A stretch of 64,000 bases of DNA, taken from the NCBI GenBank assembly GCA_000992695.1, contig LBUS01000009.1, forward strand, positions 25,548 through 89,547, read 5' to 3'. The position numbers and the translations under genes were made by a program. The first letter of the stretch is position 1. Every line of letters begins with the position of its first letter. Positions 26,531-63,200 of this stretch are shown piece by piece. The DNA comes from Candidatus Peregrinibacteria bacterium GW2011_GWF2_38_29 (GTDB lineage: Bacteria > Patescibacteriota > Gracilibacteria > UBA1369 > UBA12463). A model generated the notes under the pieces. The model saw only the letters and a program-made list of their open reading frames with translations, did no database searches and was not told the origin of the DNA.

Positions 26531-27193
26531 ATGAAAATAGAAAAAATCACTGGACAAAACATCAAAAACCTCATCCAAAAAACAATAACAGCCTTAAAAA
26601 AGGGTGAAACGATAATGCACGCAACCGAAACGTGTTACGGATTTGCATGCGACGCATTAAACAAAAAAGCTATTTCGCATTTATACAGAATCAAAAAAAT
26701 GGACGCAAAAAAACCGTCCAGCATAATGGTTGCAAATTTAGCCCAAGCCCAAAAATACGGAGAGCTCAACGCTCTCGCAAAAAAACTTGCAAAAAAATAC
26801 TGGCCCGGCCCGCTCACGATCATTGTTCCACGCAAAACTTCACTCCCAAAATTTCTGAATCCAAACTCAAAAACAATTGGAATTCGTTGCCCTGCTGATG
26901 AATTAACACAAAAAATTCTCCGCGCATATAAACTCCCACTCATTACAACAAGCGCAAACATAAGCGGTCAAAAAGAATCTTATTCAATCGACGCATTCTT
27001 AAAATCCGCACCAAAAAACTCGCTTCTTCCGGATTTAATCCTCGATTCAAATCGCATACCAAAACGCAAACCTTCAACAGTCATCTCGATTGAAAAAAAC
27101 CAAATAAAAATATTAAGAAGCGGGAGCATGAATATCAGGTCTATCATAAAATTGAGCAGACTCACCATGAATCCTCTCAAATCTCGCCCTTAA
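26531..27193 (+). CDS. tsaC: L-threonylcarbamoyladenylate synthase (YrdC/Sua5 domain)
   Basis: Motifs: ETCYGFACDA, KPSSIMV, WPGPLTII, IGIRCP, ITTSANISG, PSTVI. The start is set at ATG 26531 (MKIEKI). The last 81 nt overlap the convergent gene. Confidence 0.8.
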   Translation: MKIEKITGQNIKNLIQKTITALKKGETIMHATETCYGFACDALNKKAISHLYRIKKMDAKKPSSIMVANLAQAQKYGELNALAKKLAKKYWPGPLTIIVPRKTSLPKFLNPNSKTIGIRCPADELTQKILRAYKLPLITTSANISGQKESYSIDAFLKSAPKNSLLPDLILDSNRIPKRKPSTVISIEKNQIKILRSGSMNIRSIIKLSRLTMNPLKSRP

Positions 27194-28114
27194 ATCGGGC
27201 TCAAAATCTCCTCTAAGCTCAAATTTTATATTAAACCCATCTTTATCATTGTTACTACAAGTAACCATTATAGCTTTAAGGTCTTCTAAAGAATTACCCG
27301 GCAAAAATATGTGAAATGATTTTGAAAAACTACCATCATCCAAAATTGAACGCGCTAACATAGAAACACCTTCCACTCCAATAGCGCTACCTGCATTGCC
27401 CCACACATCACTTTCATCTTCACCAAAAACAACAAACGAATAAATCGAAATTAACATATCACGCACAAAATGCTCAACTTCCTTAACAGGCCTTTGTTCT
27501 AACTTAAGATGACGTGCAACACTATTAAAATAATTAACACTGGGAAAATAATGAGCCTCAACACACTTAACAGCTTCTCTAAAACCAACTGACAAAGATC
27601 CAATCGCATCAATAAAATCAGAATTATCAGCAAGATCGGCATAATAAGAATGATCCAAATCAACATCTGAAGCTTTCAAAAGCATCGCCTTTATAGCATC
27701 ACCTGACTCTTCAGCGTCCAAAGCAAAAACAACAGACTCTTTAACCGCAAAAGCTAAAGCTTTTAAATATTGTGGCTTTAAAATGCGTGCCTCTAAAGGA
27801 TCTTCATTTACCAATAGCCCATCAACAACTCCATGCATACTCGTTATGCAAGAATCAGCTGCTTGCAAAAAATCACGCTTCGCAGCACGATCAACAGATG
27901 ACGTTGAAGGACTTGAACGCATAGGAGTCAATTTGCCATCTTCAACGTCTTTAGTTCTAGCACCATCAATTTTAAGAGCAGTCTTATTATCAACTAATCT
28001 AAAAACGAATCCCGCCAAATCTTCTCTAGCGCCCTTACCGGAACGCCTTCTGTTTTTACCTTTATATCCCGGAGCATCTATCTCTAAATCCAATTCCGGT
28101 TCAAATTCATCCAT
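27113..28114 (-). CDS. orphan acidic protein, unknown function
   Basis: 333-aa uninterrupted ORF with its own consensus promoter. No motif recognised. D/E/G/A/V-rich, unlike the K/I/N-rich neighbours. Confidence 0.6.
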   Translation of the reverse strand: MDEFEPELDLEIDAPGYKGKNRRRSGKGAREDLAGFVFRLVDNKTALKIDGARTKDVEDGKLTPMRSSPSTSSVDRAAKRDFLQAADSCITSMHGVVDGLLVNEDPLEARILKPQYLKALAFAVKESVVFALDAEESGDAIKAMLLKASDVDLDHSYYADLADNSDFIDAIGSLSVGFREAVKCVEAHYFPSVNYFNSVARHLKLEQRPVKEVEHFVRDMLISIYSFVVFGEDESDVWGNAGSAIGVEGVSMLARSILDDGSFSKSFHIFLPGNSLEDLKAIMVTCSNNDKDGFNIKFELRGDFEPDLRARFERIHGESAQFYDRPDIHAPAS

Positions 28115-28680: not shown

Positions 28681-29163
28681 TTACAACTTTATAACAAATC
28701 TCTGCAAATCAACCTTATCGATAAAATGTTTATAATTCGCTTTTTGCATCAATAAATAAGAAGGATTATCCTTAAAACTCACGATTTCAACTGCCTTATT
28801 TTTACGTTTAACCATTTCAATCGCAGGTGCCAAATCGCCATCTGAACTTATAAGAATAGCTTTATCGTAACGATTTTCATACGCGCCCTCCACAAGATCG
28901 ATTGCAATTCTAACGTCAACGCCTTTTTCGGTAAAAATATTACCAATTTGCTGAAACCTATGCAGTCTTTGACTTTTTTTATTATTATCAATCGGCCTAA
29001 TCTGCCCTATATAATAACCAACGCCTTCCAATTTTCTGTCTTTTACGAAATAATTTACAAATTTTTTAAAATTAAAATTTATATGCCCACAATTAGATCT
29101 GCGCAAATTATGATACAAATTTGACCCGTCTATGTAAACATAAACCCTTTCTTTTTTATCCAT
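28681..29163 (-). CDS. NYN (LabA-like, PIN-related) domain protein
   Basis: Motifs: VYVYIDGSNLYHNL, EKGVDVRIAIDLV, AILISSDGDLAPAIEMVK. The segment between the first and second acidic motifs is shorter than usual. Confidence 0.7.
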   Translation of the reverse strand: MDKKERVYVYIDGSNLYHNLRRSNCGHINFNFKKFVNYFVKDRKLEGVGYYIGQIRPIDNNKKSQRLHRFQQIGNIFTEKGVDVRIAIDLVEGAYENRYDKAILISSDGDLAPAIEMVKRKNKAVEIVSFKDNPSYLLMQKANYKHFIDKVDLQRFVIKL

Positions 29164-29177
29164 ACATATTTGATAAA

Positions 29178-29213
29178 CAAAAAACCCGTCATTGACTAAG
29201 CAACAACGGGGGG
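29178..29213 (-). terminator. candidate intrinsic terminator after the 148-aa orphan gene
   Basis: The minus strand reads CCCGTTGTT-GCTTAGTC-AATGACGGG followed by TTTTTT. The stem is 9 bp with two G-U pairs. Confidence 0.45.
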
Positions 29214-29290
29214 TTTAAGCAATTCAAATGTTAATAGGATTTTCTCGTGAAGTCAATATATGTCAGAAAAATGTTAAAAGAATGTTAAAC

Positions 29291-29737
29291 TCAAGGAAAA
29301 TCCTGCAAATAAGCACAAACTGCACCACGTTTATAATCAGAAAGCTTACCTTTTAATTCTTTTTTACCCCACGAAAAATCAAAGTTAATACGACCGATTA
29401 GATTTCCTGAATCCCACCCACCCTTATAAAGAAACACAGCGGCATGAACCAGGTCTTTGACATAAGCTCTCCCGCCATTAATGACATATGCAAATTTCTC
29501 AACATCAGTCGAATAACCATCAAATTCATCAATAAATTCTATATTGACATCTGGCCCCAAAATATAATCAACAAAATTTCTAACAAGCTTAATAACGTCG
29601 ATGGCGCTATTTGGCTTCTTTGAAGCAGCAGCAAGAACGTCACGATTCAACGTATCCAAAAGACCATGCAATTCATCAGGGCAATCAAGAATTTTGCGAA
29701 ATAAAGCGACCTCATGATGATCTACCGGAAGCGGCAT
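29291..29737 (-). CDS. orphan protein, unknown function
   Basis: 148-aa ORF with its own consensus promoter and a terminator-like hairpin. No motif recognised. Confidence 0.55.
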   Translation of the reverse strand: MPLPVDHHEVALFRKILDCPDELHGLLDTLNRDVLAAASKKPNSAIDVIKLVRNFVDYILGPDVNIEFIDEFDGYSTDVEKFAYVINGGRAYVKDLVHAAVFLYKGGWDSGNLIGRINFDFSWGKKELKGKLSDYKRGAVCAYLQDFP

Positions 29738-31472: not shown

Positions 31473-32165
31473 TTATTTGTTGTTACTATCACCACGTTCA
31501 TCAGCAGGCTCTACGGGAATTTCCCCTGCAGTAACTCTCCTCCTAACAACTTCAACTCTATCTGTAACGCTTGCATCCGGACGCATATTCATGCCAAATC
31601 TAGCTAAAGCAATTTCCGATGATTCGTATTCTCTAGGATCTTCACCCAAAGCCTCATGACACTGAAAAATAAATTGCCCCATATAATCAACAAACAAAGA
31701 AGGTTCTGCGCCAGCAATAACTTTGCTCAATTCGTTAGCAAATTTTACTAAAGCCATTGCTCTTGTTACACCATCCAACATTTCTTCATAACGATCATCA
31801 GGAACTACGTCAAAACCGTTACCATCAACGGGGAATTGATCGTCTTCATTTGGCAATAACTCGCCAACTATTGTATTAAGTTCACCCATCAAAATTTTCG
31901 ATAAACTGGTAGCGCTACCGTCATCTATAAATTCAACATAATCGCCACTACCATCGTCTTCATCTCTTGAAGATGGAGTAGTGCCACTAACGTCATCATC
32001 CCCCTCTAAGCAATCGCGCGCATCATCAGAACCATCGTCCTCAAGATGTTGTTGAATTAATGATTTAAGACCCTCATCCAAACCAGCATTCATAGCAGCA
32101 GTTTCTATATCCGCTACAGAATATCCAGGACCTTTTGGTGCACTAATCACTTTTACATCTGACAT
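31473..32165 (-). CDS. orphan, extremely acidic protein, unknown function
   Basis: ORF with a D/E/G-rich tract (HLEDDGSDDARDCLEGDDDVSGTTPSSRDEDDGSGDYVEFIDDGS). The start is set at ATG 32165 (MSDVKV) because the track start at 32198 overlaps the predicted -10 box. Confidence 0.55.
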   Translation of the reverse strand: MSDVKVISAPKGPGYSVADIETAAMNAGLDEGLKSLIQQHLEDDGSDDARDCLEGDDDVSGTTPSSRDEDDGSGDYVEFIDDGSATSLSKILMGELNTIVGELLPNEDDQFPVDGNGFDVVPDDRYEEMLDGVTRAMALVKFANELSKVIAGAEPSLFVDYMGQFIFQCHEALGEDPREYESSEIALARFGMNMRPDASVTDRVEVVRRRVTAGEIPVEPADERGDSNNK

Positions 32166-32198
32166 ATTATTTTTGATTAAAATTATAATTTGGATCAA

Positions 32199-32228
32199 AT
32201 TATATAATAAAATATTTCACTTTGTCAA
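32199..32228 (-). promoter_or_regulatory. sigma70-type promoter of the acidic orphan gene
   Basis: The minus strand reads TTGACA-N18-TATAAT (or N17-ATATAA). Confidence 0.55.
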
Positions 32229-32236
32229 GGACAACA

Positions 32237-32264
32237 TTGACGAACCTGCACCGTTGTGTATGAT
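32237..32264 (+). promoter_or_regulatory. sigma70-type promoter of the 88-aa orphan gene (divergent from the previous one)
   Basis: TTGACG-N16-TATGAT, with TG directly upstream of the -10. Confidence 0.55.
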
Positions 32265-32299
32265 AAAGTCGGTTTTATTTATAACCTAACCAAATCACT

Positions 32300-32566
32300 A
32301 TGAACGCACCACATCTAGGAAACGGAGACGATCAAACAACGGAACGTATCGGTGACACCAGGGTAAGATTAGAAACTCTTCCTTTCAGGGAAACGGAACA
32401 CGGCAGAGTTTTTAAATTTGGAGATGGAACAAATGGACCAATATGTGGGCGAAGAGCATCTGAAAGCGAAATGTCGAATGGAATATCAGAATTAAATATA
32501 TTAACATTAGACGACAACGCACGCCCAATAGTTTCGTGCGACGTAAACGGAAATCTTATTCAATAA
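32300..32566 (+). CDS. small orphan protein, paralog of the next gene
   Basis: 88 aa. Shares ETLPFRETEHGRVFKF...GPICGRRAS...PIVSCDVNGNLI with ETMPLKTTRFGKVWHF...GMIYGRTAT...PIYLCDAEGNLI in the next ORF. Confidence 0.55.
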   Translation: MNAPHLGNGDDQTTERIGDTRVRLETLPFRETEHGRVFKFGDGTNGPICGRRASESEMSNGISELNILTLDDNARPIVSCDVNGNLIQ

Positions 32567-32626
32567 GACACAAAATAAAATTATCTTTATTATTTTGATC
32601 GATTTACTAAAATCGGCAGTTTAGTA

Positions 32627-32654
32627 TTGACAAAAAATTCTACTCATGTATAAT
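32627..32654 (+). promoter_or_regulatory. consensus sigma70 promoter of the second small paralog
   Basis: TTGACA-N16-TATAAT with TG directly upstream of the -10. The -10 overlaps the ORF-track ATG at 32653, which argues for the ATG at 32692. Confidence 0.65.
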
Positions 32655-32691
32655 GATATTCCTTTATAAAACACATTTAACAAAAAATAAT

Positions 32692-33054
32692 ATGACACCG
32701 GGACCAGACACATATCGCGACCCATCAGATGCAGCAGAAGCCGCTCCAGTTTTATCACCAGGGGCAAGAATAGCAATAGAAACAGCTCTCGCATCAGATG
32801 AAAGCTGGAAAGCAACCATGAGAGACGAAACTATGCCACTAAAAACAACGAGATTCGGAAAAGTATGGCATTTCCATCGTGAAGGAATAGGCATGATATA
32901 CGGAAGAACAGCAACGGCACTAGAAGTAATAAGAGACACTCTCAAAAAACCAGATGCACCAAGTATGACAGTAGTTGGCAGGCACGAAACATCTGCGCTT
33001 CCTATATATTTATGCGACGCAGAGGGAAATCTAATTTTATCAGAGAAAGAGTAA
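32692..33054 (+). CDS. small orphan protein, paralog of 32300..32566
   Basis: 120 aa from MTPGPDTY. Its C-terminal two-thirds align with the 88-aa protein (see that entry). Confidence 0.55.
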   Translation: MTPGPDTYRDPSDAAEAAPVLSPGARIAIETALASDESWKATMRDETMPLKTTRFGKVWHFHREGIGMIYGRTATALEVIRDTLKKPDAPSMTVVGRHETSALPIYLCDAEGNLILSEKE

Positions 33055-33071: not shown

Positions 33072-33112
33072 TTGCCATATTCAAATTAGCGCTGTATACT
33101 CACAAGTGCTAA
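33072..33112 (+). promoter_or_regulatory. hrcA promoter with embedded CIRCE operator
   Basis: The promoter is TTGCCA-N17-TATACT. The CIRCE-like inverted repeat is TTAGCGCTG-N9-AAGTGCTAA (33086-33112), and the -10 hexamer occupies the first 6 nt of the N9 spacer. Confidence 0.7.
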
Positions 33113-33886: not shown

Positions 33887-34396
33887 ATGACAAATAAAGA
33901 TCAAAATCAACAAGGACAAAACGATGGCACAAATCCGCAAGATCCATCAACCGAATCCGTCGCAGAGCTTCAACAAAAACTCGAACTAATGACAGAAGCA
34001 TGCAAGCGCACGATGGCCGACCTCGCAAATTATCGCAAGCGCGCGGAAGAAGAAAAACTCGCTCTTGCAAGCTTTGGAAGCGCAAAAATTTTAATCGAAC
34101 TTTTATCAGTTTTAGACAATTTTGAACGCGCATTAAAAGCAATGGAAACAGACAACATCCCCGAAGATCATAAAAAAGGCATCATCGGAATTCAATCACA
34201 ACTCAAAGCCCTCCTCGAAAAATACGACGTAAAATCTTTTGAATCGCTCGGCAATCCATTTGATCCAAATTTTCACGAAGCAATTGCAGAAGCCCCAGGC
34301 GAAAAAGGTGCAATCATCGAAGAAATCGAAAAAGGCTACACAATCGGCGATAAAGTTTTAAGACCGGCAAAAGTTAAGGTTGGAAACGGCGCTTAA
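33887..34396 (+). CDS. grpE: nucleotide exchange factor GrpE
   Basis: Motifs: ANYRKRAEEE, LLSVLDNFERAL, FDPNFHEAI, VLRPAKVKV. Confidence 0.9.
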   Translation: MTNKDQNQQGQNDGTNPQDPSTESVAELQQKLELMTEACKRTMADLANYRKRAEEEKLALASFGSAKILIELLSVLDNFERALKAMETDNIPEDHKKGIIGIQSQLKALLEKYDVKSFESLGNPFDPNFHEAIAEAPGEKGAIIEEIEKGYTIGDKVLRPAKVKVGNGA

Positions 34397-34401
34397 GGCT
34401 C

Positions 34402-35928
34402 TTATTTTTCAATCGGCACAATTCCAAAGGCAGTGCAGGAAACATTAGTTCTAAGACCCTTACACATACGTCTATCAAGCTTTAGTCCAACCTCAAGCAA
34501 AAGTTCTCTTAATTTAATTTCAGAAGCACCGGAAAACCTAGCCTGAATTGATGTTGAATTAACACTCCCTTCTTTCACATGATCGCTCACAAATAAAAGC
34601 CAGTCCGAATTATTAGGAGCAAAGCAGCGTCCTACGTTTTTTGCTAAGAAAAGAAACACGGCTCGCGAAACGCCCTTGGAAACACCTCTATTTAACGGAA
34701 AATTCTCGTCAATCAATCTAGTTGCAGGACCAACATGCTCACTCATAATCGGCAAATTCGCAAACTCTTCCCTATCAGGCAATCCTTCTTTTTTCAGCTT
34801 ATTACCCTCCTTTAAAGGTTTTTTTACCATTCTATAAGCATGATCATATCTACGCTTACCATCGGTAAATCGACCATCCTCACAATAAACATTAATTTTC
34901 TCAAGCATATAAGGTGAATCTTTTAACTTCGCAGATTTAAAAATGCTCAACAATCTATTTAAAGTAACAAGTTTCAAATCAGAAGGACGTTCTGATCTTT
35001 TTCTTTGTCGTGCAACATCTCCTTCAAGCGAAGATCTCAAAATGTATTTACCAAAACCAGTACTAAACAAATATTCAAAAATTCTATAGTCGGAATGCTT
35101 ATTCCGATGAGCCTCAAACCAATCAAGCGCAGGCTGAACTTCATCTTCAATAAGCGGAAATTGATCCAAGTCCGCAAGCTCATGAATTTCAGGAGACTTT
35201 TTACGGCCTTTGGAAGGCTTTTCTTCATCAAGAACAACAGCCCGATCATCAACGCCGAGCTTTCTAACCATCCTACATGCAACATAAGAACGTCTACCGG
35301 TTATTGGATCAGGTCGTTCATAAGCGATCCGAACCGATTCAATTGTATAAGGGGAATTTTTTAATTTACCATTTAAAATACTCTTAACAACGCCGTGAAT
35401 AGTATCTTTAGATTTTTCATTCAAACCAGCAGCTGCACGCACCTCCTTCATAACTCCATTTAAAACATGTAATGGAATATATGCGCCAAAATTTGTAGCT
35501 AAAGCGTTTTCAACGCTTTCACTAATACCACGCCCTTGTCTTTGACGATGACTCTTAAAAAAATCCAAAGCAGGCTGAACCTCATCTTGTATGACCGGAA
35601 ATTGATTCAAATAAGCAGGAGGGTGAACTAAACGATTTCCCAATCTGGCAGGCAAAAGTTGTGCATCAGCGCCGGAAGCAGCAGCAGGAATAACATCATC
35701 AACTTGCGGCAAATCAATGCTCACATCAGCATCCATACGAGCATGCAAAGTAGCTGGTTTACCCGGCTCATCAGGACTGGAATAAACCAATTCAACTCGA
35801 AATTTCACACCCCTTTTGGCGGCATCCAACCCCTCAAGGATAACGGCAAGTGATTCAAAAGCTTTTTGAACAGTCAATGCAGCATCACTTTCTGGTTTTT
35901 CTAAACGTCGATCCCGCGCTTCTTCCAT
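34402..35928 (-). CDS. orphan protein with three tandem copies of a ~116-aa winged-helix-like module
   Basis: Copy 1 (aa 107-222) and copy 2 (aa 254-369) are equal in length. They begin QFPVIQDEVQPALDFFKSHR / QFPLIEDEVQPALDWFEAHR and end KLKNSPYTIESVRIAYE...YVACRMV / KLKDSPYMLEKINVYCE...HAYRMV. A third, degenerate copy spans aa 389-505. Confidence 0.65.
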   Translation of the reverse strand: MEEARDRRLEKPESDAALTVQKAFESLAVILEGLDAAKRGVKFRVELVYSSPDEPGKPATLHARMDADVSIDLPQVDDVIPAAASGADAQLLPARLGNRLVHPPAYLNQFPVIQDEVQPALDFFKSHRQRQGRGISESVENALATNFGAYIPLHVLNGVMKEVRAAAGLNEKSKDTIHGVVKSILNGKLKNSPYTIESVRIAYERPDPITGRRSYVACRMVRKLGVDDRAVVLDEEKPSKGRKKSPEIHELADLDQFPLIEDEVQPALDWFEAHRNKHSDYRIFEYLFSTGFGKYILRSSLEGDVARQRKRSERPSDLKLVTLNRLLSIFKSAKLKDSPYMLEKINVYCEDGRFTDGKRRYDHAYRMVKKPLKEGNKLKKEGLPDREEFANLPIMSEHVGPATRLIDENFPLNRGVSKGVSRAVFLFLAKNVGRCFAPNNSDWLLFVSDHVKEGSVNSTSIQARFSGASEIKLRELLLEVGLKLDRRMCKGLRTNVSCTAFGIVPIEK

Positions 35929-35987
35929 ATTTTTTTATAAAAATAAATAGGAATTTAAACTAGCATATGACATTGCAAAAAGTCAAA

Positions 35988-36638
35988 TCAAAGACTCTTT
36001 GGAACTAATCGATAAGCCACTTTCCTTTTCGAACCAACCAAAACGTAAATTCTTTCCAAATCACAAGATAATCTATTTATCCTGCCAAACTTATATAAAT
36101 TACTAAATACAAGCGAAACAGAATAAGGGCTATTCGCCACATCAATACCGGCACGTCCAAATTCAGCTTTAATTTCTTTATGAAAAACAAAACAACCGAA
36201 TTTTTTAACTAAAGTCATCAAAAAAACATGCTTAGAACTCATCAAAAGACTATCCCCGCAAAACAGCTCATCAACATCCTTAGCGGCAGTTTCCGCCCCA
36301 GGAAGAACTTCAAACCTTTTTAGAAAATCCGAGTCAACGAACAAAACATCATCATCAAGCAAACTGACAGTTCCCATAATTTCACCGGGCCCTTCTTGTG
36401 GAAAATGCGACGGCAATTCAACCTCAGAGCCTTCACCGTCGTCTGCGCACAATCTTTCAACTTCCGCTTCCAGTGCTTCAACGTTAGCAGTAAGACCTCT
36501 AACTCCGGCTTGAAATTCATTCATCGTTTCAGCAATTTCAGCATCAAGAACATCAAATACACCACGAACCTTAGTTGTGAACAACTCCTCCAACTCCGCC
36601 TTAGCCTGCAACAATGATAATGATACAAAAGGAGCCAT
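35988..36638 (-). CDS. orphan protein: N-terminal coiled coil plus one copy of the same module
   Basis: Coiled coil: AELEELFTTKV...NVEALEAEVERL. Module: KHVFLMTLVKKFGCFVF...VANSPYSVSLVF...KVAYRLV. Only 8 nt separate it from the upstream gene, so co-transcription is likely. Confidence 0.6.
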   Translation of the reverse strand: MAPFVSLSLLQAKAELEELFTTKVRGVFDVLDAEIAETMNEFQAGVRGLTANVEALEAEVERLCADDGEGSEVELPSHFPQEGPGEIMGTVSLLDDDVLFVDSDFLKRFEVLPGAETAAKDVDELFCGDSLLMSSKHVFLMTLVKKFGCFVFHKEIKAEFGRAGIDVANSPYSVSLVFSNLYKFGRINRLSCDLERIYVLVGSKRKVAYRLVPKSL

Positions 36639-36646
36639 AATATATT

Positions 36647-37291
36647 TTAATGAAAAGAAACGAGAAGTTTTTCCAAATCCCCTGCCTTTGTTTCCGCAGG
36701 AAATAAACCAAAAACAGCATTATGCATAGTATTTTTTTCACAATCACTTTCAACGTACATAACAAAAATTCTATAAGGAGCCTTGCTAGACGCTAACTTA
36801 TTCCTTAATTGATTAATAAGTTGAGAACCCCAACAACCGGAAAATCTAGTTCTCATATAAACATTAACCTCTGCCACGTCCATCATTCTGCCCGCATTTT
36901 CCGCAAAAAACATAGAAAGCATAGGACTGTGCGTTCCTTTAATCATATCAGAAGTCATCCACTGCACGGCCTTCGCAACCTCAGCACCAAGCAAAAGGAA
37001 TACCTGCATTGCTTGTTTTGGATAAACGGTCACGGTTCTAGCCTTAACATCAAATCCAATTGTTGTATCTGCATTTTTTGTCCCCTGCGGATGCACTTTG
37101 CGCAACTTCTTTTTATGCAACAAAGCGTCCAAAGCAAGCGGCTGCGGATCAGCCTCTCTTCGCTGAGCATCAGCCAATGATCGCCTAACTAAATCTGATA
37201 ATGCCGCAAGTTCACGACGCATAACCTCAATTTTATCTAAACCGGCTTGAAGCTCTTCGGCTGTTACAAACACGGGCAATCTATCACTCAT
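36647..37291 (-). CDS. orphan protein: N-terminal coiled coil plus a divergent copy of the module
   Basis: Coiled coil: EELQAGLDKIEVMRRELAALSDLVRRSLADAQRRE. Module remnants: AKAVQWM, SPMLSMFFAENAGRMM, LASSKAPYRIFVMYVE. Confidence 0.55.
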   Translation of the reverse strand: MSDRLPVFVTAEELQAGLDKIEVMRRELAALSDLVRRSLADAQRREADPQPLALDALLHKKKLRKVHPQGTKNADTTIGFDVKARTVTVYPKQAMQVFLLLGAEVAKAVQWMTSDMIKGTHSPMLSMFFAENAGRMMDVAEVNVYMRTRFSGCWGSQLINQLRNKLASSKAPYRIFVMYVESDCEKNTMHNAVFGLFPAETKAGDLEKLLVSFH

Positions 37292-37319
37292 AAATTATTA
37301 TTAATTAATACGCTAAACT

Positions 37320-37347
37320 ATTTTAACTAATAATTCTAATTTGTCAA
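37320..37347 (-). promoter_or_regulatory. sigma70-type promoter of the 214/216-aa gene pair
   Basis: The minus strand reads TTGACA-N16-TAAAAT. Confidence 0.55.
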
Positions 37348-37363
37348 TGGCAAGCTTCTAAGC

Positions 37364-37975
37364 CTAACCCAAATGCCTAAGCGTCAAACGATAAACGTAA
37401 CGAATATCAACGTCACCGGTTGCATCAGGTCTACCCTTAACAATTCTTTTTTGAATAGCGTAAGGAGAATTTTTATATCTATAATCTCTTAAAATCTCAG
37501 AAATAACATCGTCTAGATCACTAACTCCACCGACAAGCTCATTAACCTCCCTATCTTGAAAAAACTTTCCAATATTCTGCGCAAGAAATACAAGAACGCG
37601 ATTCTTTTCGCCTTTCCATCCAAACTTAGAAGCCCACGCAAGAGCAGAATCAACCTCTTCATGCACAACGGATAACCCGCTTAACTCAAACGCAGTAATC
37701 TCAGCAATAGTAAGCCCTCCATCCAAAGAACAATCATCCGCATCTTCATCAAGACCTGCAGGATCTTTTTCGATAACGGCATCAGGAGCTACAGGAGCAA
37801 CGTCACTTACAGCAAATTCATCAACAAAAACTTCTCCATCCGCCAAAGCATCCCTCACAGCATCTGAAGTTGGCCTGCAAAATCTCTCTAATCCGGCAAA
37901 AACATCGGCAAATTTACGCAAAACAATTGGCGATGTAACTTGCTCAACGAAACGTTTAAGACCTTTAATTTCCAT
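37364..37975 (-). CDS. orphan protein: acidic N-terminal half plus one copy of the module
   Basis: Module: VVHEEVDSALAWASKF, NRVLVFLAQNIGKFFQDREV, ILRDYRYKNSPYAIQKRIVKGRPDATGDVDIRYVYRLTL. Confidence 0.6.
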   Translation of the reverse strand: MEIKGLKRFVEQVTSPIVLRKFADVFAGLERFCRPTSDAVRDALADGEVFVDEFAVSDVAPVAPDAVIEKDPAGLDEDADDCSLDGGLTIAEITAFELSGLSVVHEEVDSALAWASKFGWKGEKNRVLVFLAQNIGKFFQDREVNELVGGVSDLDDVISEILRDYRYKNSPYAIQKRIVKGRPDATGDVDIRYVYRLTLRHLG

Positions 37976-37999: not shown

Positions 38000-38027
38000 A
38001 ATCTTACAGCAATATCAACCTTTGTCA
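38000..38027 (-). promoter_or_regulatory. sigma70-type promoter of the 203-aa orphan gene
   Basis: The minus strand reads TTGACA-N16-TAAGAT. Confidence 0.55.
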
Positions 38028-38073
38028 ACATTTTAAACTAACGCAAAAACCACCTCCGTCCCCACATTTCCAC

Positions 38074-38114
38074 TTGACGACTTAAATTTAGCACTCTATA
38101 ATTCTGAGTGCTAA
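38074..38114 (+). promoter_or_regulatory. dnaK promoter with a perfect CIRCE operator
   Basis: The promoter is TTGACG-N17-TATAAT. CIRCE is TTAGCACTC-tataattct-GAGTGCTAA (38088-38114), and the -10 lies inside the 9-nt spacer. Confidence 0.9.
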
Positions 38115-38166: not shown

Positions 38167-40149
38167 ATGGGAAGAATTATAGGTATTGATCTTGGTACAA
38201 CAAACTCTTGCGTTTCAATTATGCAAGGCGGAGAGCCAACAGTCATTGAAAACTCCGAAGGAATGCGCACAACTCCATCAGTTGTCGCAATAAAAGACGG
38301 AAATCGAACGGTTGGAATTACGGCAAAACGCCAAGCGGTTATGAATTCGGAAAACACGATTTATTCCGCAAAACGCTTGATTGGTCGCAAATATGACGAA
38401 TCCACCGCGGACATAAAACGCCTCGGATATAAAGTCGAGCGTGGACCCGAAGGAGACGCAATGATTATTTTGAATGGCGAAAAAAAGAAACCTGCGGAAA
38501 TTTCCGCAATGGTTCTTCAAAAACTCAAAGCGGACGCAGAAGCATTTCTTGGAGAAAAAGTAACGGAAGCCGTCATCACGGTTCCCGCATATTTCAATGA
38601 TTCGCAAAGACAAGCTACAAAAGACGCAGGTGCAATCGCAGGACTGGAAGTAAAAAGAATTATAAACGAACCAACAGCCGCGGCTCTCGCATATCATTTG
38701 GATAAAAAAAGCGAGCAAAAAGTTGCGATTTACGATCTTGGTGGTGGAACTTTTGATATCTCGATTCTTGATATTGGAGAAGGTGTTTTGGAAGTACTTT
38801 CCACAAACGGCGATACGCAACTTGGTGGTGACGATTTTGACGCAAAAATTACAGATCATCTTATAAATGAATTCAAAAAAGAAACGGGAATTGATTTGTA
38901 TCAAGACAAGGTCGCAATTCAGCGCGTTCGTGATGCTGCGGAAAAAGCAAAATGCGAACTTTCCACAATGGCGGAAACGGAAATCAATCTTCCATATATT
39001 TCATCCGATTCGAACGGACCAAAACATTTGCTTATAAAATTGAGCAGATCAAAGCTCGAATCTCTTGTTCAGGAATTGATTGATCGCACAGTTGAGCCAT
39101 GCAAAAAAGCGCTTAAAGATGCCAAATTAACAGCGGAAAATATTGATGAAGTTATTTTGGTTGGAGGTATGACAAGAATGCCTGCAGTCCAAGCAAAAGT
39201 TAAAGATTTCTTCGCGAAAGAACCACACAAAGGCGTAAATCCGGATGAAGTTGTTGCAATTGGCGCGGCAATTCAAGGTGGTGTTTTGATGGGAGATATT
39301 AAGGATATTCAACTTTTGGATGTCACTCCCCTAACCCTATCGATTGAAACGCTCGGAAGCGTTGCAACTCCAATGATTGAAAGAAACACAACAATTCCAA
39401 CTTCAAAAACTCAAGTTTTCTCAACTGCGGCGGATAATCAAACGTCCGTTGAAATTCACATTTTACAAGGCGAAAGACCAATGGCAGCGGACAACAAATC
39501 TCTCGGAAGATTTATTCTGGATAACATCCCTCCGGCGCCTCGCGGAATTCCACAAATTGAGGTTTCGTTGGATATAGATTCAAACGGCATTTTGAACGTA
39601 AAAGCGGTTGATAAAGCCACAAATCGCACACAACACATTACTATCACAGGCAGTGGCCACATGAAAGACGCGGATATCGAACGAATGAAAAAAGAAGCCG
39701 AGCAATATGCCGAAGAAGACAAAAAAAAGCGCGAACTTATCGACCTCAAAAACAAAGCCGAATCCTTGATGATGCAATCTGAAAAAACCTTGAAAGATGC
39801 GGGAGAGAAGGTTGCGGATTCTTTGAAAAAACCGGTGCAAGAAAAAATCGAAGCTTTGAAAAAAGTTATGGCCGAAAAAGAGATCAAAAAAGAAGACCTC
39901 GAAAAAGCCTACGACGAACTTTCCACAGAAATACAGAAGGTTGGAACCGAACTGTATAAGGCGGCTAGCGAAAATTCAAAAGCGGAAGGGGCGAGCATGG
40001 GTGGCGGGGACAGCGCGAGCGAATCAGCGAGCGCAAAAGGCTCGGGTACAAGCTCGGGCGGCACAGGCACTCCCGACGACGGCGTCAAAGTCACAGACAA
40101 AAACAAGAAAGGTGGGGATGATGTAGTGGAGGGGGAAGTGGTGAAATAG
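38167..40149 (+). CDS. dnaK: molecular chaperone DnaK (Hsp70)
   Basis: Motifs: [35 protein letters not shown], plus a full substrate-binding domain. Confidence 0.97.
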
Positions 40150-40169: not shown

Positions 40170-40970
40170 ATGTACCAATACCTACAGCAATTAAAGTTAA
40201 ATGAAATTTTTTCACCATCAAACACCATAGGTTATACGATAGGCATAATAGGAATAATAATAGGCATAATTTTCTATATAAAAAGTAAAAAGGAAAAATT
40301 ACCATTTTATTATTTAGAAAATTGCCATGTTCTTCAAGAAATAGAAAAAATTCAAAAAATTCAAATAAATTACGACAGAAAACGAATAGAAAATCTTACG
40401 ATCACTAAATTAGTAATATGGAACAACGGGAAAGAAACAATCCAAAAAACAGACATAGCAAAAAACAACCCATTAAGAATTACAGCCAATAATAATGCTA
40501 AAATTTTATACGCAAAAATACTATATCAAGATAATGTAAACAATAATTTTCAACTACAACAAAAAAATAATGAAATCTATATAAATTTTGATTATTTTGA
40601 CAACGAAGAAGGAGCGATAATAGAAATACATCACACCGGAATAAAAAAAGAAGATCTAATAATTAATGGAGCATTCAAAGGAGTGAAAAAACTTTCAAAC
40701 ATAAGATCATCTGAAAGTAAAATCAAAACATTAAATAATTTTCTCGGAATTTCAAATAAAAAATATAAACGCATGGCATTTTTAGCATTCATGACTCCGC
40801 CTATATTTATAGCAATAAAATATTCAAAACTAAATGAAATATTAAACGGCAAACAGATGGAAACAATATTTATAATAGTCACTACGATAGCATACTGGAT
40901 TTTTGGAGTCTTTCTTTTATTTATGAAAAGAAAAACGCCAAAATGGGCCGAACGATATACGGAAATATAA
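40170..40970 (+). CDS. membrane protein of unknown function in an AT-rich islet
   Basis: 266 aa. It has one N-terminal TM (IGYTIGIIGIIIGIIFYI), an N/K/I-rich central region and two C-terminal TMs. By eye the DNA is about 25% G+C, clearly lower than dnaK. Confidence 0.5.
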   Translation: MYQYLQQLKLNEIFSPSNTIGYTIGIIGIIIGIIFYIKSKKEKLPFYYLENCHVLQEIEKIQKIQINYDRKRIENLTITKLVIWNNGKETIQKTDIAKNNPLRITANNNAKILYAKILYQDNVNNNFQLQQKNNEIYINFDYFDNEEGAIIEIHHTGIKKEDLIINGAFKGVKKLSNIRSSESKIKTLNNFLGISNKKYKRMAFLAFMTPPIFIAIKYSKLNEILNGKQMETIFIIVTTIAYWIFGVFLLFMKRKTPKWAERYTEI

Positions 40971-41093
40971 ATTTTATATTCCAAAAGATGAGCATATACC
41001 TACCTTCATTTTTCGCAACATATTTTTCAGATTTAATCTGGATTTTTTGGCTTGTTTAAGCTAAAATATCAGCAACAACATAATCTAAAAAAT

Positions 41094-42026
41094 ATGACAA
41101 ATGTAGCGCAAAATGCACAAAAAATTCTCGAAAAAGATCTTCATCAAAAATTCGTCTTTTATGGCAAAAATGCACTCAAATGGAAAAGAAAATGCACAAT
41201 TCTTTTGCCGGAAATAGCAAAATATAGAATTTGGGAGAAAAAAGGATTCAGTAGTATTTATGAATACGCAGCAAAACTGGCCGGGATAAATAATGCATCG
41301 GTTAATGTCGCTCTTTGGGCAATGCGAAAAATTGAAGACAAACCGGAATTAAAACGCGTTGTTGAAGAAAAAGGCATCGAAATAATTCGTCCAATCGCAA
41401 ATATTGCAACTCCTGAGACCGCAGCATTTTGGGCGGAAAAAGCTATGGGAATGAGTAAAAACACGCTGGCAGCATATGCAAAAGAATACAAAAAATCTGA
41501 GCTTAGCTCCCCTTGCGCCGACTCAAAAAATTATTACGAAAATCAAACTTTATTCTCTGATTTAAGTGCCGAACAAATAACAATGGATTTAAGTCCGGAA
41601 ACAGCCGAACAACTTCAAAAACTCAAAGGCCAACTTCTGCAAACCTATCAAACGCAAATTGAAGCCAAAAAACCAATCCCACAAGAAAACGCAAAAAGGT
41701 ACGTACCGGCAAAAATCGAAAAATACGTACTCGCTAAAACAAACAACGCATGCGCATTTCCAGGTTGCACAAAAGAATACAAATATCTGCATCACACATG
41801 GAGATTCGCACTCACAAAAACGCATGACCCAGATACTCTCATTCCCCTTTGCAAAGCGCACGAAAGAATGGCGCACTATGGCTTGATTGAAAACGAAGAT
41901 TTGCCGCCAAAAAACTGGAAAATCAAACTTGAGGCAAACAAAACCACTGAAAAATGGCAAAAAGTGGATAAATGGGTGGCAGAGCATTACAACAAATATA
42001 ATGCGAAAAATCAGCCGCCAAGTTAA
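41094..42026 (+). CDS. HNH endonuclease domain protein
   Basis: C-terminal HNH motif: CAFPGCTKEYKYLHHTWRFALTKTHDPDTLIPLCKAHERMAHYG. The N-terminal region is helical. ATG 41094 is preferred over the track's TTG start at 41052. Confidence 0.7.
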   Translation: MTNVAQNAQKILEKDLHQKFVFYGKNALKWKRKCTILLPEIAKYRIWEKKGFSSIYEYAAKLAGINNASVNVALWAMRKIEDKPELKRVVEEKGIEIIRPIANIATPETAAFWAEKAMGMSKNTLAAYAKEYKKSELSSPCADSKNYYENQTLFSDLSAEQITMDLSPETAEQLQKLKGQLLQTYQTQIEAKKPIPQENAKRYVPAKIEKYVLAKTNNACAFPGCTKEYKYLHHTWRFALTKTHDPDTLIPLCKAHERMAHYGLIENEDLPPKNWKIKLEANKTTEKWQKVDKWVAEHYNKYNAKNQPPS

Positions 42027-57141: not shown

Positions 57142-57169
57142 TTGAATTATAAAAATATTGTGCTAAAAT
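57142..57169 (+). promoter_or_regulatory. candidate promoter of the giant surface-protein gene
   Basis: TTGAAT-N16-TAAAAT, about 38 nt upstream of the ATG at 57207. Confidence 0.4.
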
Positions 57170-57206
57170 TATCATTAAAAGCAACACAATTTATCCCCCT
57201 TTCAGT

Positions 57207-60200
57207 ATGCCCAAATTTTTAACTGATAAAAAATTTAAAAACGCTCTTAAAACAGGAGCGATGATTTTGGCTTTAATAAGCCTTTTCGTAAGCACTACTA
57301 TCAATTTCAAAACAAACCAAGCGGAAGCCCAAGCCGTAGACCCATATGAATATTCATTGCGATTTGGGCTAGACTGGCAAACCGATCAATTCAACGGAAT
57401 ATATGGACCGGCAATTGATCCCGATACCGGAGATATATATCTAAGCGTCAGTAGAAGTGGAGGCACATCTCATTACATACAAAGATATGATTCAAGCGGC
57501 ACGTATATAAGTAAATTTTCCACATATTATTTACCAAGAGGTCAACATACAATATCCGGTGGTTATATTTATGTACCGGAAGCCGGTGATATAAGAAAAT
57601 ATTCTCTAAGTGGAAGCTATATAGGGTCTGCGGCATCATCACTCAGCATGGCCGTTGCGGTAGCGATTGATGGAAGTGGAAATTTTTACGTTGCAGATCA
57701 AAACGCACATTTGGTTAAAAAATTTAATTCAAGCGGAACTCTTTTAATAACGCTGGGAAGTACGGCGGGATCGGCGGACGGACAATTCTATTATCCGCAA
57801 GGAGTAGCGGTTGATTCGAGTGGAAATATTTACGTAGCAGACACGTGGAACAACAGAGTACAAAAATTCAATTCAAACGGAGAATTTGTAACAAAATGGA
57901 CTTTACAACTTGATGGAAACGAACGCGGATGGGCATATAAAATATATATAGACGGCAGTGACAACATATACGTCAGCAATTCAAGCGTTGGAAATGTTGA
58001 AAAATACGATACAAGCGGAACATTGCTCACAACTCTCGCGATAGGCTCCGGCAGTATAACAAAAGACGCCGGCGGTAACATTTATACTTCAAATTTAAAA
58101 TATAATTCAGTAGGAGACACCATTCTATTAACGTTAAATACCTATGGACGAAGCTTAGATGGACAATTTTATAGCGCGGAAAATCTGGGAGTCGATTCAA
58201 GCGGGAATATATACGTCGCAGACACCGGAAACAACAGAATACAAAAATTCGATTCAAGCGGAACCTATTTATCAAAATTCGGAAGTTATGGAACGGGAGA
58301 TGGACAATTTAACACACCAAGAGATGTAGTAGTTGATTCAAGTGAAAATATATACGTTTTAGACAAAGGCAATAAAAGAATACAAAAATTCAACTCAAGC
58401 GGAACATATACAACTCAGTGGAATTTGGAACTTGATTCTCCAAATGAATGGGGCGAAGGAGAAAGTATGACAATAGATAGCGATAATAACATATACGTAT
58501 ATAACAGATTTATTTATGGAGTTGAAAAATTTACTTCAGCGGGAGTGAAATTAATAAACATAGGCTCGGAAGGAACAGGTGACGGACAATTTAGCGGCTA
58601 CGGCAACAAAATATCAATTGATCAAAACGATAACACTTTATACGTTATGTCAGCCGGTAGAATACAAGCGTTCAACTCGAGCGGCACATATTTAAGACAA
58701 TGGAGTTTATCATCAATGAGCGTCCCATCATCAATCACAGCCAAAAACGGCTACGTATACGTTGGTGGAGGAGCATGGTATTCAGGTTATGCAGGCTTTT
58801 ACATATACGACTCAAATGGAACTTACATAAACAGACATTGGCCAAGTTCAGGCTCAAGCACAGGACAATTTAATTGGATAATGGATCTGATAATAGATTC
58901 AAATTTAAATATATACGTATTGGGAGCCGGAAACTCTGCGTCAGAAAGTTATGTCCAAAAATTCTTACCTGTTGTACCGCCAACCGCACCTTCCGCTTGT
59001 ACAATTTCAAACATAACCGGCACATCAGTCGCCGTTAACTGGACAGACAATTCAAGCGACGAAGATAATTTCACTCTCGAAAAATCAACAAACGGCACAG
59101 ACTATGAAGTTGTTTCATCCACAATACCTGCAAATATAGTCGCAAAAGGCGTTGGCGATCTTGACTACAACACACAATATTGGTTTCGCGTCAAAGCAAC
59201 AAGTACAACAAGCGGCAGTTCAACTTATGCAACTTGCTCCCCTAGTACAACAACAGACACAACGGTAATTGAACCGTACAGGTTTGACACGAAGTGGGGA
59301 AGCGAGGGAAGTGGGAATGGGCAATTTGCATCATCGTCTCCACAAGGAATAGCAATTGATTCAAGTGGAAATACCTACGTGACAGACACAAATAATAATC
59401 GTATTCAAAAATTCGACTCAAGCGGAACATATATAACTCAATGGGGAAGTTTTGGAACCGGAAATGGGCAATTCAATTACCCGCGAAGCATGGCGATTGA
59501 CTCAAGCGGGAATGCATATGTTACAGACTATCAAAATAACCGTATTCAAAAATTCGACTCAAGCGGAGCATATATAACTCAATGGGGAAGCCAAGGAAGT
59601 GGAAGTGGAGAATTCAATGGACCTATTGGAATAAATATCGATACAAGTAATAACGTATATGTAGGTGACACGGAAAATCACCGTATTCAAAAATTCGACT
59701 CAAGCGGAACATATATAACTCAATGGGGAAGCCAAGGAAGTGGAAGTGGAGAATTCAACAGGCCACAAGGCGTAGCAATTGATTCAAGCTGGAATATTTA
59801 CGTAGCAGATTACGACAATGACCGTATTCAAAAATTCGACTCAAGCGGAACATATATAACTCAATGGGGAAGCCAAGGAAGCGGAAATGGAGAATTCGAT
59901 GGACCTATTAGCATAGCCGTTGATTCAAGCGGAAATATGTATATTTCAGAATACCACAACGGCCGCATACAAAAATTAAACTCAAATGGAACATATATAA
60001 CTCAATGGTCAGATGGAATCGGAAGCTTCCCGTTAGACATATCGATTGATTCAAGCGAGAACGTCTATATAGCAGATCAAACCACCAACCTTATCCAAAA
60101 ATTCGCCCCAAACTCAAACGTCGCCCCAACGTCAACATCTTTCGCCGCAACATCAAGCACAAATCCGGTGTTCTCATGGACGTTCAGCGACAGAAACGAA

Positions 60201-63200
60201 GCAGACACACAGTCCGCATATCAAATTCAAGTTTCATCATCAAACGGATTCGAATCAAATATATGTGATACGGAAAAAACATTGGGAACAACAAGTTCGA
60301 TTGCATATAATGACACAAGCTGCACAACTCCTCTCGTAGCAAGCCAAATGTATTATGCAAGATTAAAAACTTGGGATAATAGCGACTTGCCAAGTGAATT
60401 CACACCAAGTTCGGGCTATGTTTTCACCGCAACATCCCCTTCTCCAACCGCACCATCCGCATGCGTAACTTCAAATATAACTTCATCCGGAATGACGATT
60501 GGTTGGACAGACAATTCAAACAACGAAACATATTTTGATTTAGAAAAATCAACAAACGGCACAGACTATGAAACCGTTAATAATTTAATCGCAGCAAATA
60601 CGGTTTCATATGACGCAAGTTCATTATCAACCAATGACCAACTCTGGTTCCGCGTCCGCGCAAAAGGAGAAACCGGAAATTCCGCATACGCAACATGCTC
60701 CCCTGTTTATACATTAGCGGATACGGGGTTTGATCTAACGCATAGCTCAACGGGATCAGGAAGCATCTTAATTTCTATAACTTCTGAGGGAACAAATCCA
60801 AGCAACACAGAATATGCAATCATGGTTGGAACTCAATATCTACATTCAGATAGAAGTCGTTATGACTCAGCTGAATGGAATACAAAAACCACATGGGACA
60901 CAACCGAAATGGCAATCGGATTAAGTCCTAACACAACATATGAAATTAAAGCAAAAGCACGCAACGGTGAAAGCACGGAAACAAGTTTTGGCACAGCAGA
61001 ATATCGCACAACCCTTGCAACGATAGTCCCTTCTTTAACTATAAGCGACATTCAAACAACATCATTCAGAATCCCTCTTACATCTGATGGAAATCCAGCA
61101 GGCACACAATATGCAATCAAAAACGGAACACAATATTTACAAACAAACAGCACGTTTGGCGAACCGGCAACCTGGCAAACACGAACAGAGTGGGGTGGAG
61201 AAACAGGGCCAACAATAACCGGCCTCACAGAAAATACATCATACACAATAAGATTACTTTCAAGAAACAACGAAGAAGTTGAAACAATAGGCCCTACTTC
61301 AACGGCATACACAGCAGTTGACGCACCATCGAATTTCCAAACTACAGCGATCGATTCAACAAGTATGTCATTCTCAGTTGATCAATTTACAAACGATTCA
61401 ACGTATTTATCGGGATATTTCTTCTATGGTTATTCGATTCCGGAAGATTTGGGCGGATATTATAGCTTCTCGAATTGGAACAACGGTGAATTCACAGGAT
61501 ATCAATGGACGCACTCATCGCTCACGCCAAACAAACAATTCATACATCACGTTAAACAAAGAAACCAAGAAGGCACGGAAAGCGCAGTTGTCGACTTAAC
61601 GGCATGCACTGCAGCAAACACGCCCGCTATATCGGCCAGCAATATCACCACAACAACATTTGATGTAACAATAGACAAAAATAGCAATCCAAATGGCACA
61701 TATTACACAGTAAGATCTATAGGGATGTATCTGGATGAAGGAGGCACCTTCTCTGAACCGGAAAGATGGTTCACGGCAGATTCAACAAATACATTCGCAG
61801 TTTCGGAATTAACACCGGGCGGTACGTATTTAATGGCTGTACAAGCAAAAAACTGTGACAATATTGGAACGGACACATCAACAACAACGGCATACACATT
61901 ACCAAACTCACCGGGAACGCCGGATATAACTCCATACACAACAAGTGTCAACGTAGAAATTGATTCCGGCTTTAATGACGACAGCTATGTGCTCTTTGCA
62001 ATGCAATTCGCAACAAATGACACGTTCACAGACGCGTTATATGTCCAAGCAGACGGAACCCTCGGCGAAACAGCGATATGGCAAACATATAATGATTGGG
62101 GAGGAATCAGCGGAAAACTCGTCACCGGATTATCAACAAACACGCCTTATTACATTAAAATTAAAGTTAAAAACGGTGGTGGAGTTGAAGCAACACCGGT
62201 AACGACTACAACAACAACGCTGGTGAACACTCCGTTAACACCAACCATCGTTTCATCGTCCGAGACAACAACGTCTTTCAGATTCAATCTCAACACTAAT
62301 TCAAATTCATCAAGTGTAAAATATGCAATTCAATTCCCTACTTCATTAAAATATTTAAGTGAAACCGGAACGTTAACGAGCGACACCGCTGTTTGGAAAA
62401 CAAACACTGAATGGGACGCAGTTGATGGCAACGCAAGCAATGGAATAACAATTACAGGGATCTCTCTCGGAAATTCCTGCTACATGCTCAAGGCAAAAGC
62501 AAAAAGTACAGCCGAAACAGAAACCGAATTTGGAGCACTTTCAAACTCAATGTGCAATCTTGCAAACACTCCAAGCGCGCCAACGCTTGCAACAATGAAC
62601 TCAACGTCACAATTAGCGCTCACAATTAACGACACGTTAAATACAAATGCAACAAAATATGCAATATATGAACCAACTTTATTAAAATACGTTCAATCAA
62701 ACTACCAACTTGGAACAAGCGCATATTTCAAAACAAAATCCGCATGGGAAAGTGAAGACGGTAATGAAACATATCTAATAGCAATATCCGGATTAAGCTC
62801 AAATACTTCACACACATTCAAAGTTAAAGCAAGAAATGATTCGGAAACCGAAACCGCTTTATCAGGAGCGTCAAACACAGCATTAACAAATACGCCCGAC
62901 AGTGGAGGCTGCACAACAACTTGGACATATACCGCTTGGAGCACATGTTCAGCCGGACATCAAACGCGTATAAAATCGGATTCAAACGGATGCCCGGGAG
63001 TAAGCTCGATAACAGAAGATCAAACGTGTGTAATGCCATGCACGCCAAACTGGACATGCACGTCATGGAATTCTTGCGCAAACAGCTCTCAATCAAGAAC
63101 ATGCACAGATTCAAATCTTTGCGGTGTAATAACAGACAAGCCAATAGAAACGCAAACATGCACAACAGCCTGCACACCAAACTATACATATAGCGACTGG

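Follow-up and report, generated by a model that had tools for sequence, protein, structure and literature searches.

Several described groups of winged-helix proteins offer a basis for comparison with the genes reported here. Regulators of the MarR/ArsR type (MepR, SarZ, NolR, HlyU) follow the order α1-β1-α2-α3-β-hairpin and act as homodimers, those of the OmpR/PhoB type (Trans_reg_C) carry a four-stranded antiparallel sheet before α1, and TFIIIC tauB, RPC34, TFIIE-β, the tandem winged helices of Pol I A49 and the bacterial protein YcaQ place several winged helices in one chain, alongside the transcription machinery; sigma-70 factors with extra DNA-binding domains form a further point of reference. 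The subject of this report is a cluster of four consecutive minus-strand genes, A508, B216, C214 and D203, located between grpE and dnaK in a stretch of 64,000 nucleotides (nt) from Candidatus Peregrinibacteria bacterium GW2011_GWF2_38_29 (contig LBUS01000009.1, positions 25,548 to 89,547), which we refer to as the window and number from its first letter. The cluster proteins are a new and very narrow family inside the well-known winged-helix class, and their deployment in tandem and in fusion with sigma factors is unusual. We suggest, as a reading that we hold to be modestly probable, that they are lineage-specific, diversifying, DNA-binding transcription factors carried in an accessory insertion of about 3.7 kb, which is transcribed the opposite way, from its own promoters.

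The four open reading frames (ORFs) lie exactly where a preliminary description of this DNA had placed them, and their products have in common a module of ~115-130 residues. A508 (34402-35928, minus strand, 508 residues) consists of an acidic N-terminal region of ~100 residues and three tandem modules, recognised as three domains by the family hidden Markov model (HMM): module 1 (35245..35631, minus strand, residues ~100-228, isoelectric point (pI) 9.5), module 2 (34804..35190, minus strand, residues ~247-375, pI 8.6) and module 3 (34405..34782, minus strand, residues ~383-508), which is divergent and lacks the SPY motif. The remaining proteins have one module each, placed behind an acidic helical N-terminus in B216 (35988-36638, minus strand, 216 residues; module ~99-216), the most divergent paralog, behind a basic helical N-terminus in C214 (36647-37291, minus strand, 214 residues; module ~87-204) and behind an acidic N-terminus, predicted with low confidence and possibly disordered, in D203 (37364-37975, minus strand, 203 residues; module ~90-203). 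No other ORF of the window matches the family HMM. Within A508, residues 101-223 and 248-370 are 36% identical (E 3e-20), the opening 20-mers of the two copies, previously called near-identical, agree at 15 of 20 positions, and the DNA beneath them holds a repeat of 72 nt that is 76% identical, the two copies being 441 nt apart. Both copies run for 113 residues from QFP to RMV, so that their equal length is confirmed and the 116 residues given earlier are a matter of boundary choice; the four motif strings quoted at that time are all present.

Paralogy was assessed by hhalign comparison of sub-family profiles that had been aligned independently. The first two copies of A508 match each other with a probability of 99.7%, together they match the C214 group at 93%, the C214 and D203 groups match at 91.6%, and copy 1 matches the D203 group at 87%. 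These similarities are significant, and we regard A508 copies 1 and 2, C214 and D203 as firmly related by sequence. Copy 3 of A508 (44-56% against the C214 group or copies 1 and 2) and B216 (71.5% against the C214 group) are, because of these lower values, called probable members only, and the earlier statement that all four proteins share the module holds firmly for the first set and with this qualification for the second. A detection profile built solely from A508 copies 1 and 2, D203 and their orthologs, in which the target was therefore absent, found C214 with a per-sequence E-value of 1.6e-6, A508 copy 3 with 1.4e-4 (9e-9 for its ortholog) and B216 with 1.5e-3 (3.7e-6 for its ortholog). 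B216 is further bridged to the family by P0008, a protein of 387 residues that adjoins the dnaK region in a third genome and in which an extra module is fused to a B216 ortholog (48% identical).

The AlphaFold2 model of the module alone, obtained from an alignment of 23 sequences, is a confident one, with a predicted local distance difference test score (pLDDT) of 83.6 and a predicted template modelling (TM) score of 0.78. Helices are predicted at 27-39, 45-55, 63-70 and 76-90 and strands at 61-62, 94-102 and 113-121, which gives the order α0 (E-V-x-x-A-L-x-W), α1 (ending in L-A-x-N-x-G), a short β1, α2, α3 (ending before S-P-Y) and a long β-hairpin (ending in Y-R-L/M-V). The arrangement expected of a winged helix, α1-β1-α2-α3-β2-wing-β3, is thus present, and the model supports a canonical winged-helix topology with one extra N-terminal helix, the segment 27-39, packed against it. 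Full-length D203 is predicted with the same topology (pLDDT 74-90 over the module, below 50 for residues 28-94). Foldseek searches with the full-length and module-only models gave best E-values of 0.12 in the PDB and 0.035 in BFVD. The best-ranked PDB matches, sub-significant as they are, come nearly all from winged-helix DNA-binding domains (NolR, TFIIIC, SarZ, MepR, GlnR, SaeR), of which those of GlnR and SaeR have the highest target-normalised TM-scores in the PDB (0.48-0.52); in BFVD the module matches small phage helix-turn-helix (HTH) proteins with a probability of 0.96-0.99 and TM-scores of 0.57-0.63. Support for the fold class thus comes from topology and from what the best analogues are, not from a significant score, and it is at the level of topology that the winged-helix-like fold first proposed for the module is borne out.

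The pattern of the module, L-x-x-N-x-G ... K-L-K ... P-Y-x-I ... Y-R-L, is reminiscent of the OmpR/PhoB domain, a resemblance on which the preliminary description had remarked, and of 12 weak matches in a PDB sequence-profile search (all with E ≥0.04) five are OmpR-type; the matches to CadC, CpxR and response regulators have E-values of 0.24-0.83. We nevertheless reject membership of this class. Trans_reg_C (PF00486) is found in one of 23 modules at E 0.052 and gives no match for the window proteins, hhalign against hand-typed PhoB and OmpR sequences gives a probability of 1.7%, and the AlphaFold2 model has helices, not a four-stranded antiparallel sheet, before α1. Further differences are the β1 strand between α1 and α2 and the lack of a receiver or transmembrane partner; OmpR-type domains, sought in the fetched loci for a better profile, were not found there. 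The top-ranked structural analogues are MarR/ArsR-type regulators, whose order of elements the module shares, but it has no MarR-type dimerisation helices, bears the extra N-terminal A-x-x-W helix and a long wing of variable length, and forms tandem arrays within one chain instead of homodimers. The corresponding profiles (PF12802, PF01047, PF01022) do not match the window proteins. Distant members of the family, described below, come closer but stay under threshold (MarR_2 24.9 bits with a cut-off of 27, HTH_5 15.9 with a cut-off of 22), and the sub-threshold Pfam and PADLOC matches of their modules (MarR_2, Rrf2, HTH_5, PF0610-like_N and the Csa3 winged HTH) are consistent, at the sequence level, with a winged-helix domain. 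As for proteins with several winged helices, TFIIIC domains are among the top Foldseek matches and the tandem concept is present in the literature; however, the module has no detectable sequence homology to the eukaryotic, archaeal or DNA-repair examples, and its repeats arose as paralogs recently, inside a single bacterial lineage. Descent from the winged helix of the neighbouring HrcA was also considered and rejected (hhalign at most 4.4% against the N-terminal domain of HrcA). Scans of the four proteins against Pfam, NCBIfam, PHROGs and PADLOC gave no match above threshold, and a search of the literature for descriptions of this family found none. The proteins accordingly belong to no named family, as had been supposed, and the Pfam scan ties them to no annotated family with a known function other than DNA binding.

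The distribution of the family is extremely narrow. A508, D203 and the module alignment, used as queries in word-indexed searches, retrieved orthologs and nothing else; these came from Candidatus Peregrinibacteria GW2011_GWC2 and a 'Gracilibacteria' metagenome-assembled genome (MAG). When 1.84 billion cluster representatives were searched exhaustively with the HMM, eight proteins were found at E ≤1e-3, four of them new and distant members (P0008, P0009, P0011 and P0012). Every member with a source name comes from Peregrinibacteria or Gracilibacteria, in agreement with the lineage specificity first proposed, and no family match was found in viral contigs, phage genomes, plasmids, PHROGs or PADLOC; a phage or plasmid context for the same genes is therefore not seen in these records. 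P0012 (400 residues) has two modules. P0011 (610 residues, three modules), from a Peregrinibacteria MAG, is encoded directly downstream of two sigma-70 paralogs of 606 and 615 residues. P0009 is a protein of 1336 residues, annotated as a sigma-70 factor, in which at least six modules precede sigma regions 2-4 (at about 811-1128). It is linked to the family by hhalign: the C214 group gives 95% against P0009 (97% against P0011), and the a and d modules of P0009, those with the MarR_2 match, reach 94.7% against the family profile. In joining modules to sigma-70 regions 2-4, P0009 resembles the sigma-70 factors with additional DNA-binding domains, from which the four window proteins differ in having neither sigma region 2 nor region 4.

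Some details of these distant loci may be recorded here. In P0009 (contigs in ERZ1426830 and ERZ1426763) the modules form two a-b-c triplets, a seventh winged-helix-like domain resembles the N-termini of the sigma paralogs beside P0011, and there is a C-terminal extension; the C-terminal domain, tried as a relative of the module, has no detectable relationship to it. The P0009 gene is followed by one for a protein of 1120 residues of unknown function. The tandem sigma paralogs upstream of P0011 (5886-9942 of locus L006) have an N-terminal winged-helix-like domain (…THYTxLTYxIL…ALDRL…), and the same contig has a normal rpoD elsewhere.

At the locus itself, A508 and grpE (33887-34396, plus strand) converge, the end of A508 being 5 nt from the grpE stop codon, while D203 and dnaK (38167-40149, plus strand) diverge across a spacer of 191 nt. 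The base composition (GC content) of the cluster is that of its surroundings. Upstream of C214 is a sigma-70-type promoter block (37315..37351, minus strand; TTGACA, a 16-nt spacer and TAAAAT; scan score 11/12), which hardly varies among three genomes, even in the case where the protein encoded downstream is only 31% identical, and which has no second copy in the window. A promoter-like site upstream of D203 (38001..38028, minus strand; scan score 10/12), divergent from the dnaK promoter, is poorly conserved between genomes. The gaps from the C214 stop to the B216 start (8 nt) and from the B216 stop to the A508 start (59 nt) are short, and B216 and A508 are therefore probably co-transcribed. 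The four genes had been described as separately promoted, which fits the sigma-70-like sites before D203 and C214 but not B216 and A508.

The position between grpE and dnaK is kept in three related genomes. In one arrangement (loci L001 and L002, genes given by product length where unnamed) the order is dnaK, 206, an IS30 transposase, 214, 216, 510, grpE, hrcA; in another (loci L005 and L003) it is dnaK, 240 (unrelated to D203), 223 (the C214 ortholog, 31% identical), 387 (P0008), the A508 ortholog, grpE, hrcA. The nearest relative without the family, L012 (GrpE 58%, DnaK 77% and HrcA 73% identical), has hrcA, grpE and dnaK contiguous, and in about 48 other loci dnaK is 0-2 kb downstream of grpE and the module occurs in none, so that the contiguity assumed to be normal for these genes is indeed so. 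L012 has a perfect CIRCE (controlling inverted repeat of chaperone expression) between grpE and dnaK and another before hrcA. In the window a CIRCE-like operator with three mismatches (33086..33112, plus strand) precedes hrcA-grpE, and the dnaK promoter (38074..38114, plus strand), with a perfect CIRCE at 38088-38114, flanks the cluster without being part of it. Since the cluster-free L012 already has the dnaK operator, the cluster sits where the transcription units of hrcA-grpE and of dnaK already met, and it entered there with no need to rewire the control of dnaK. Relative to the L012 backbone (GAPDH ... rsmH-ftsL-like-hrcA-grpE-dnaK-w270 ... serS), the lineage has two further insertions, U241/U88/U133 before hrcA and w266 with the HNH-like w324 after dnaK, and for this reason the place beside the heat-shock genes is best explained by an accessory insertion, one among several.

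A functional tie to the heat-shock regulon, with the four proteins as extra regulators of hrcA-grpE and dnaK, was nonetheless weighed, because the position is retained in three genomes and the D203 promoter stands back-to-back with the CIRCE-controlled dnaK promoter. We consider this very unlikely. The dnaK operator is older than the insertion, the two other insertions in the same backbone are unrelated to the cluster, the distant family members occur in unrelated contexts, the modules have no similarity to the HrcA winged helix, and CIRCE is found only before hrcA and before dnaK, with none on the promoters of the cluster. The cluster probably lies outside the heat-shock system, and the link to that regulon suggested at the outset is not sustained by the age of the operator or by the neighbouring insertions; recognising an insertion at a permissive operon boundary, rather than a new heat-shock arm, removes a false lead. 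The chaperones beside the cluster raise one other possibility. DnaK and GrpE remodel RepA and RepE, and the tandem winged-helix arrangement, with a weak Foldseek match to RepE (E 1.5), could point to iteron-binding Rep-like or partition-type proteins of an integrated replicon. We find this scarcely credible, as the proteins match no Rep family and no plasmid, iterons were not found, and the location is stably chromosomal and syntenic.

The cluster genes diverge far more quickly than those around them. Compared with L001, housekeeping neighbours are 93-99% identical with ratios of non-synonymous to synonymous substitution (dN/dS) of 0.035-0.086, whereas identity and dN/dS are 91% and 0.16 for D203, 79% and 0.36 for C214, 67% and 0.37 for B216 and 59% and 0.45 for A508, a rate about 4-10 times that of the neighbours. 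These dN/dS values (0.16-0.45) are those of purifying selection and on that ground all four are real genes; together with the conserved C214 promoter and the synteny in three genomes, they make the genes look expressed. Divergence in A508, whose orthologs are 59% and 64% identical to it, is uneven: module 1 is 80% identical to that of P0003 and only 52% to that of P0002, and in module 3 P0002 and P0003 share 87% identity with each other but only about 65% with the window copy. This pattern suggests recombination or uneven rates. In the genome of L005 and L003, where HrcA is 99.6% identical, D203 is replaced by the unrelated 240-residue gene and C214 by the distant ortholog already mentioned. 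The residues of the module that are conserved (A, W, L-A-x-N-x-G, S-P-Y and Y-R) look like scaffold positions, and the rest varies, including α3 and the wing loop.

Such variability would also be expected of a hypervariable accessory or conflict island under diversifying selection, whether a remnant of a mobile element or prophage or a set of regulators for defence or host interaction. The raised dN/dS, the module-by-module variation of A508, the exchange of D203 and divergence of C214 between genomes with near-identical HrcA, the IS30-family transposase inside the L001 cluster and the status of the cluster as an insertion relative to L012 all speak for this. However, every dN/dS is below 1, the GC content is that of the neighbourhood, no integrase, tRNA, terminal repeats or flanking repeats were found at the cluster, and PADLOC, PHROGs, viral contigs and phage and plasmid records gave no match; we therefore think such an island improbable. 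The transposase gene (7573-8571 of L001; Pfam HTH_38 and a DDE-like C-terminus) lies between the D203 and C214 orthologs and occurs in the GW2011_GWC2 genome only.

We infer that these proteins bind DNA, act in transcription and recognise multiple sites. Apart from that of D203, the modules have a pI of 8.6-9.5, and in P0009 they are fused to a sigma-70 factor, which makes the DNA-binding or regulatory role first suggested the most plausible; the basic modules, this fusion and the adjacency of P0011 to sigma paralogs make a part in transcription, or as promoter accessories, the best supported. The modules would most likely bind DNA, and A508 would contact neighbouring sites with three heads in a row. 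In B216, C214 and D203 a single head would be presented, preceded by an N-terminal region, helical or acidic, that may serve in oligomerisation or in contact with a partner. On this view the proteins would be transcription factors or promoter accessories, and we propose that specificity differs among the paralogs, and even among strains, because scaffold residues are conserved while the remainder diverges quickly. The 8-nt spacing of C214 and B216, and the fact that P0008 joins a module to the B216 ortholog, are hints from sequence that these two products may act together.

A number of observations weigh against this reading. Pfam and NCBIfam give no match above threshold for the proteins, Foldseek found no structural match at E ≤1e-3 in the PDB or BFVD, and the D203 module is not basic (pI 6.15). 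No operator-like repeats were found in the intergenic DNA of the cluster and no sigma gene in the 64-kb window. For the winged-helix-like domain at the N-terminus of the sigma paralogs beside P0011, a relationship to the module was rejected (hhalign 5%), which reduces the connection between P0011 and sigma factors to one of adjacency. The very fast and uneven divergence of the modules is unusual for housekeeping regulators. Finally, winged helices are also used for binding to proteins and to RNA. The modules could thus be protein-interaction domains that dock on RNA polymerase, sigma or another partner, making the proteins sigma-accessory or anti-sigma-like rather than readers of DNA. The P0009 fusion and the sigma paralogs beside P0011 speak for this, as do the acidic N-terminal tails of A508, B216 and D203, the near-neutral D203 module and the missing operator-like repeats; on the other hand, most modules are basic, their top structural analogues are DNA-bound winged-helix domains, and a sigma gene is again wanting in the window. 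We judge this unlikely, yet it is the foremost of the alternatives, followed in falling likelihood by the conflict island, the heat-shock link and the Rep-like proteins.

Returning to DNA-binding transcription factors, a bolder form of the proposal deserves mention, which we offer as speculation with little chance of being right. The module could be a lineage-specific, portable head for reading promoters, used by Peregrinibacteria together with sigma-70, in cis in P0009 and in trans through separate proteins such as A508, B216, C214 and D203, with rapid shuffling and divergence of the heads rewiring promoter specificity from strain to strain. If true, this would be a modular form of promoter recognition not described in bacteria. 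The more modest reading, if correct, would establish a hitherto unnamed family of winged helices that carry an additional helix at the N-terminus, deployed in tandem arrays and giant sigma fusions in one lineage of the candidate phyla radiation (CPR). It would also add to a very thin catalogue of CPR transcription regulators and provide a tractable example, on a small scale, of rapid regulator diversification between near-identical genomes.

The two other insertions have features of their own. Between the ftsL-like gene and hrcA (31473-33054) are U241 (31473-32198, minus strand), which encodes a very acidic protein of 241 residues, and U88 (32300-32566, plus strand) and U133 (32653-33054, plus strand), which encode small paralogs (33% identity, E 6e-8); in L001 the ortholog of U133 has 204 residues and contains the domain twice. 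The three proteins have no Pfam match and dN/dS values of 0.3-0.43, and L012 lacks the insertion. Between dnaK and w270 (40170-42026) are genes for a membrane-like protein of 266 residues, in place of which L001 has other small genes (124 and 147 residues), and for a protein of 324 residues whose C-terminus appears HNH-like by eye (CxxC...HH). Another hypervariable gene (27113-28114) encodes a protein of 333 residues without a Pfam match, whose orthologs at the same position in L001 and L003 are only ~44% identical to it, with flanks at 93-97%. Genes for an NYN-domain protein (160 residues) and a protein of 148 residues of unknown function (28681-29737) have no DNA alignment with L001 and look like a strain-specific insertion. 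Elsewhere in the window, the large subunit of ribonucleotide reductase (5884-9273, 1129 residues) is split by an intein with a LAGLIDADG homing-endonuclease domain and is directly followed by a gene for a protein of 848 residues without a Pfam match (9309-11855). An ORF of at least 2282 residues (57153-64000), which begins with a signal-peptide-like sequence and runs off the end of the window, probably encodes a giant surface protein.

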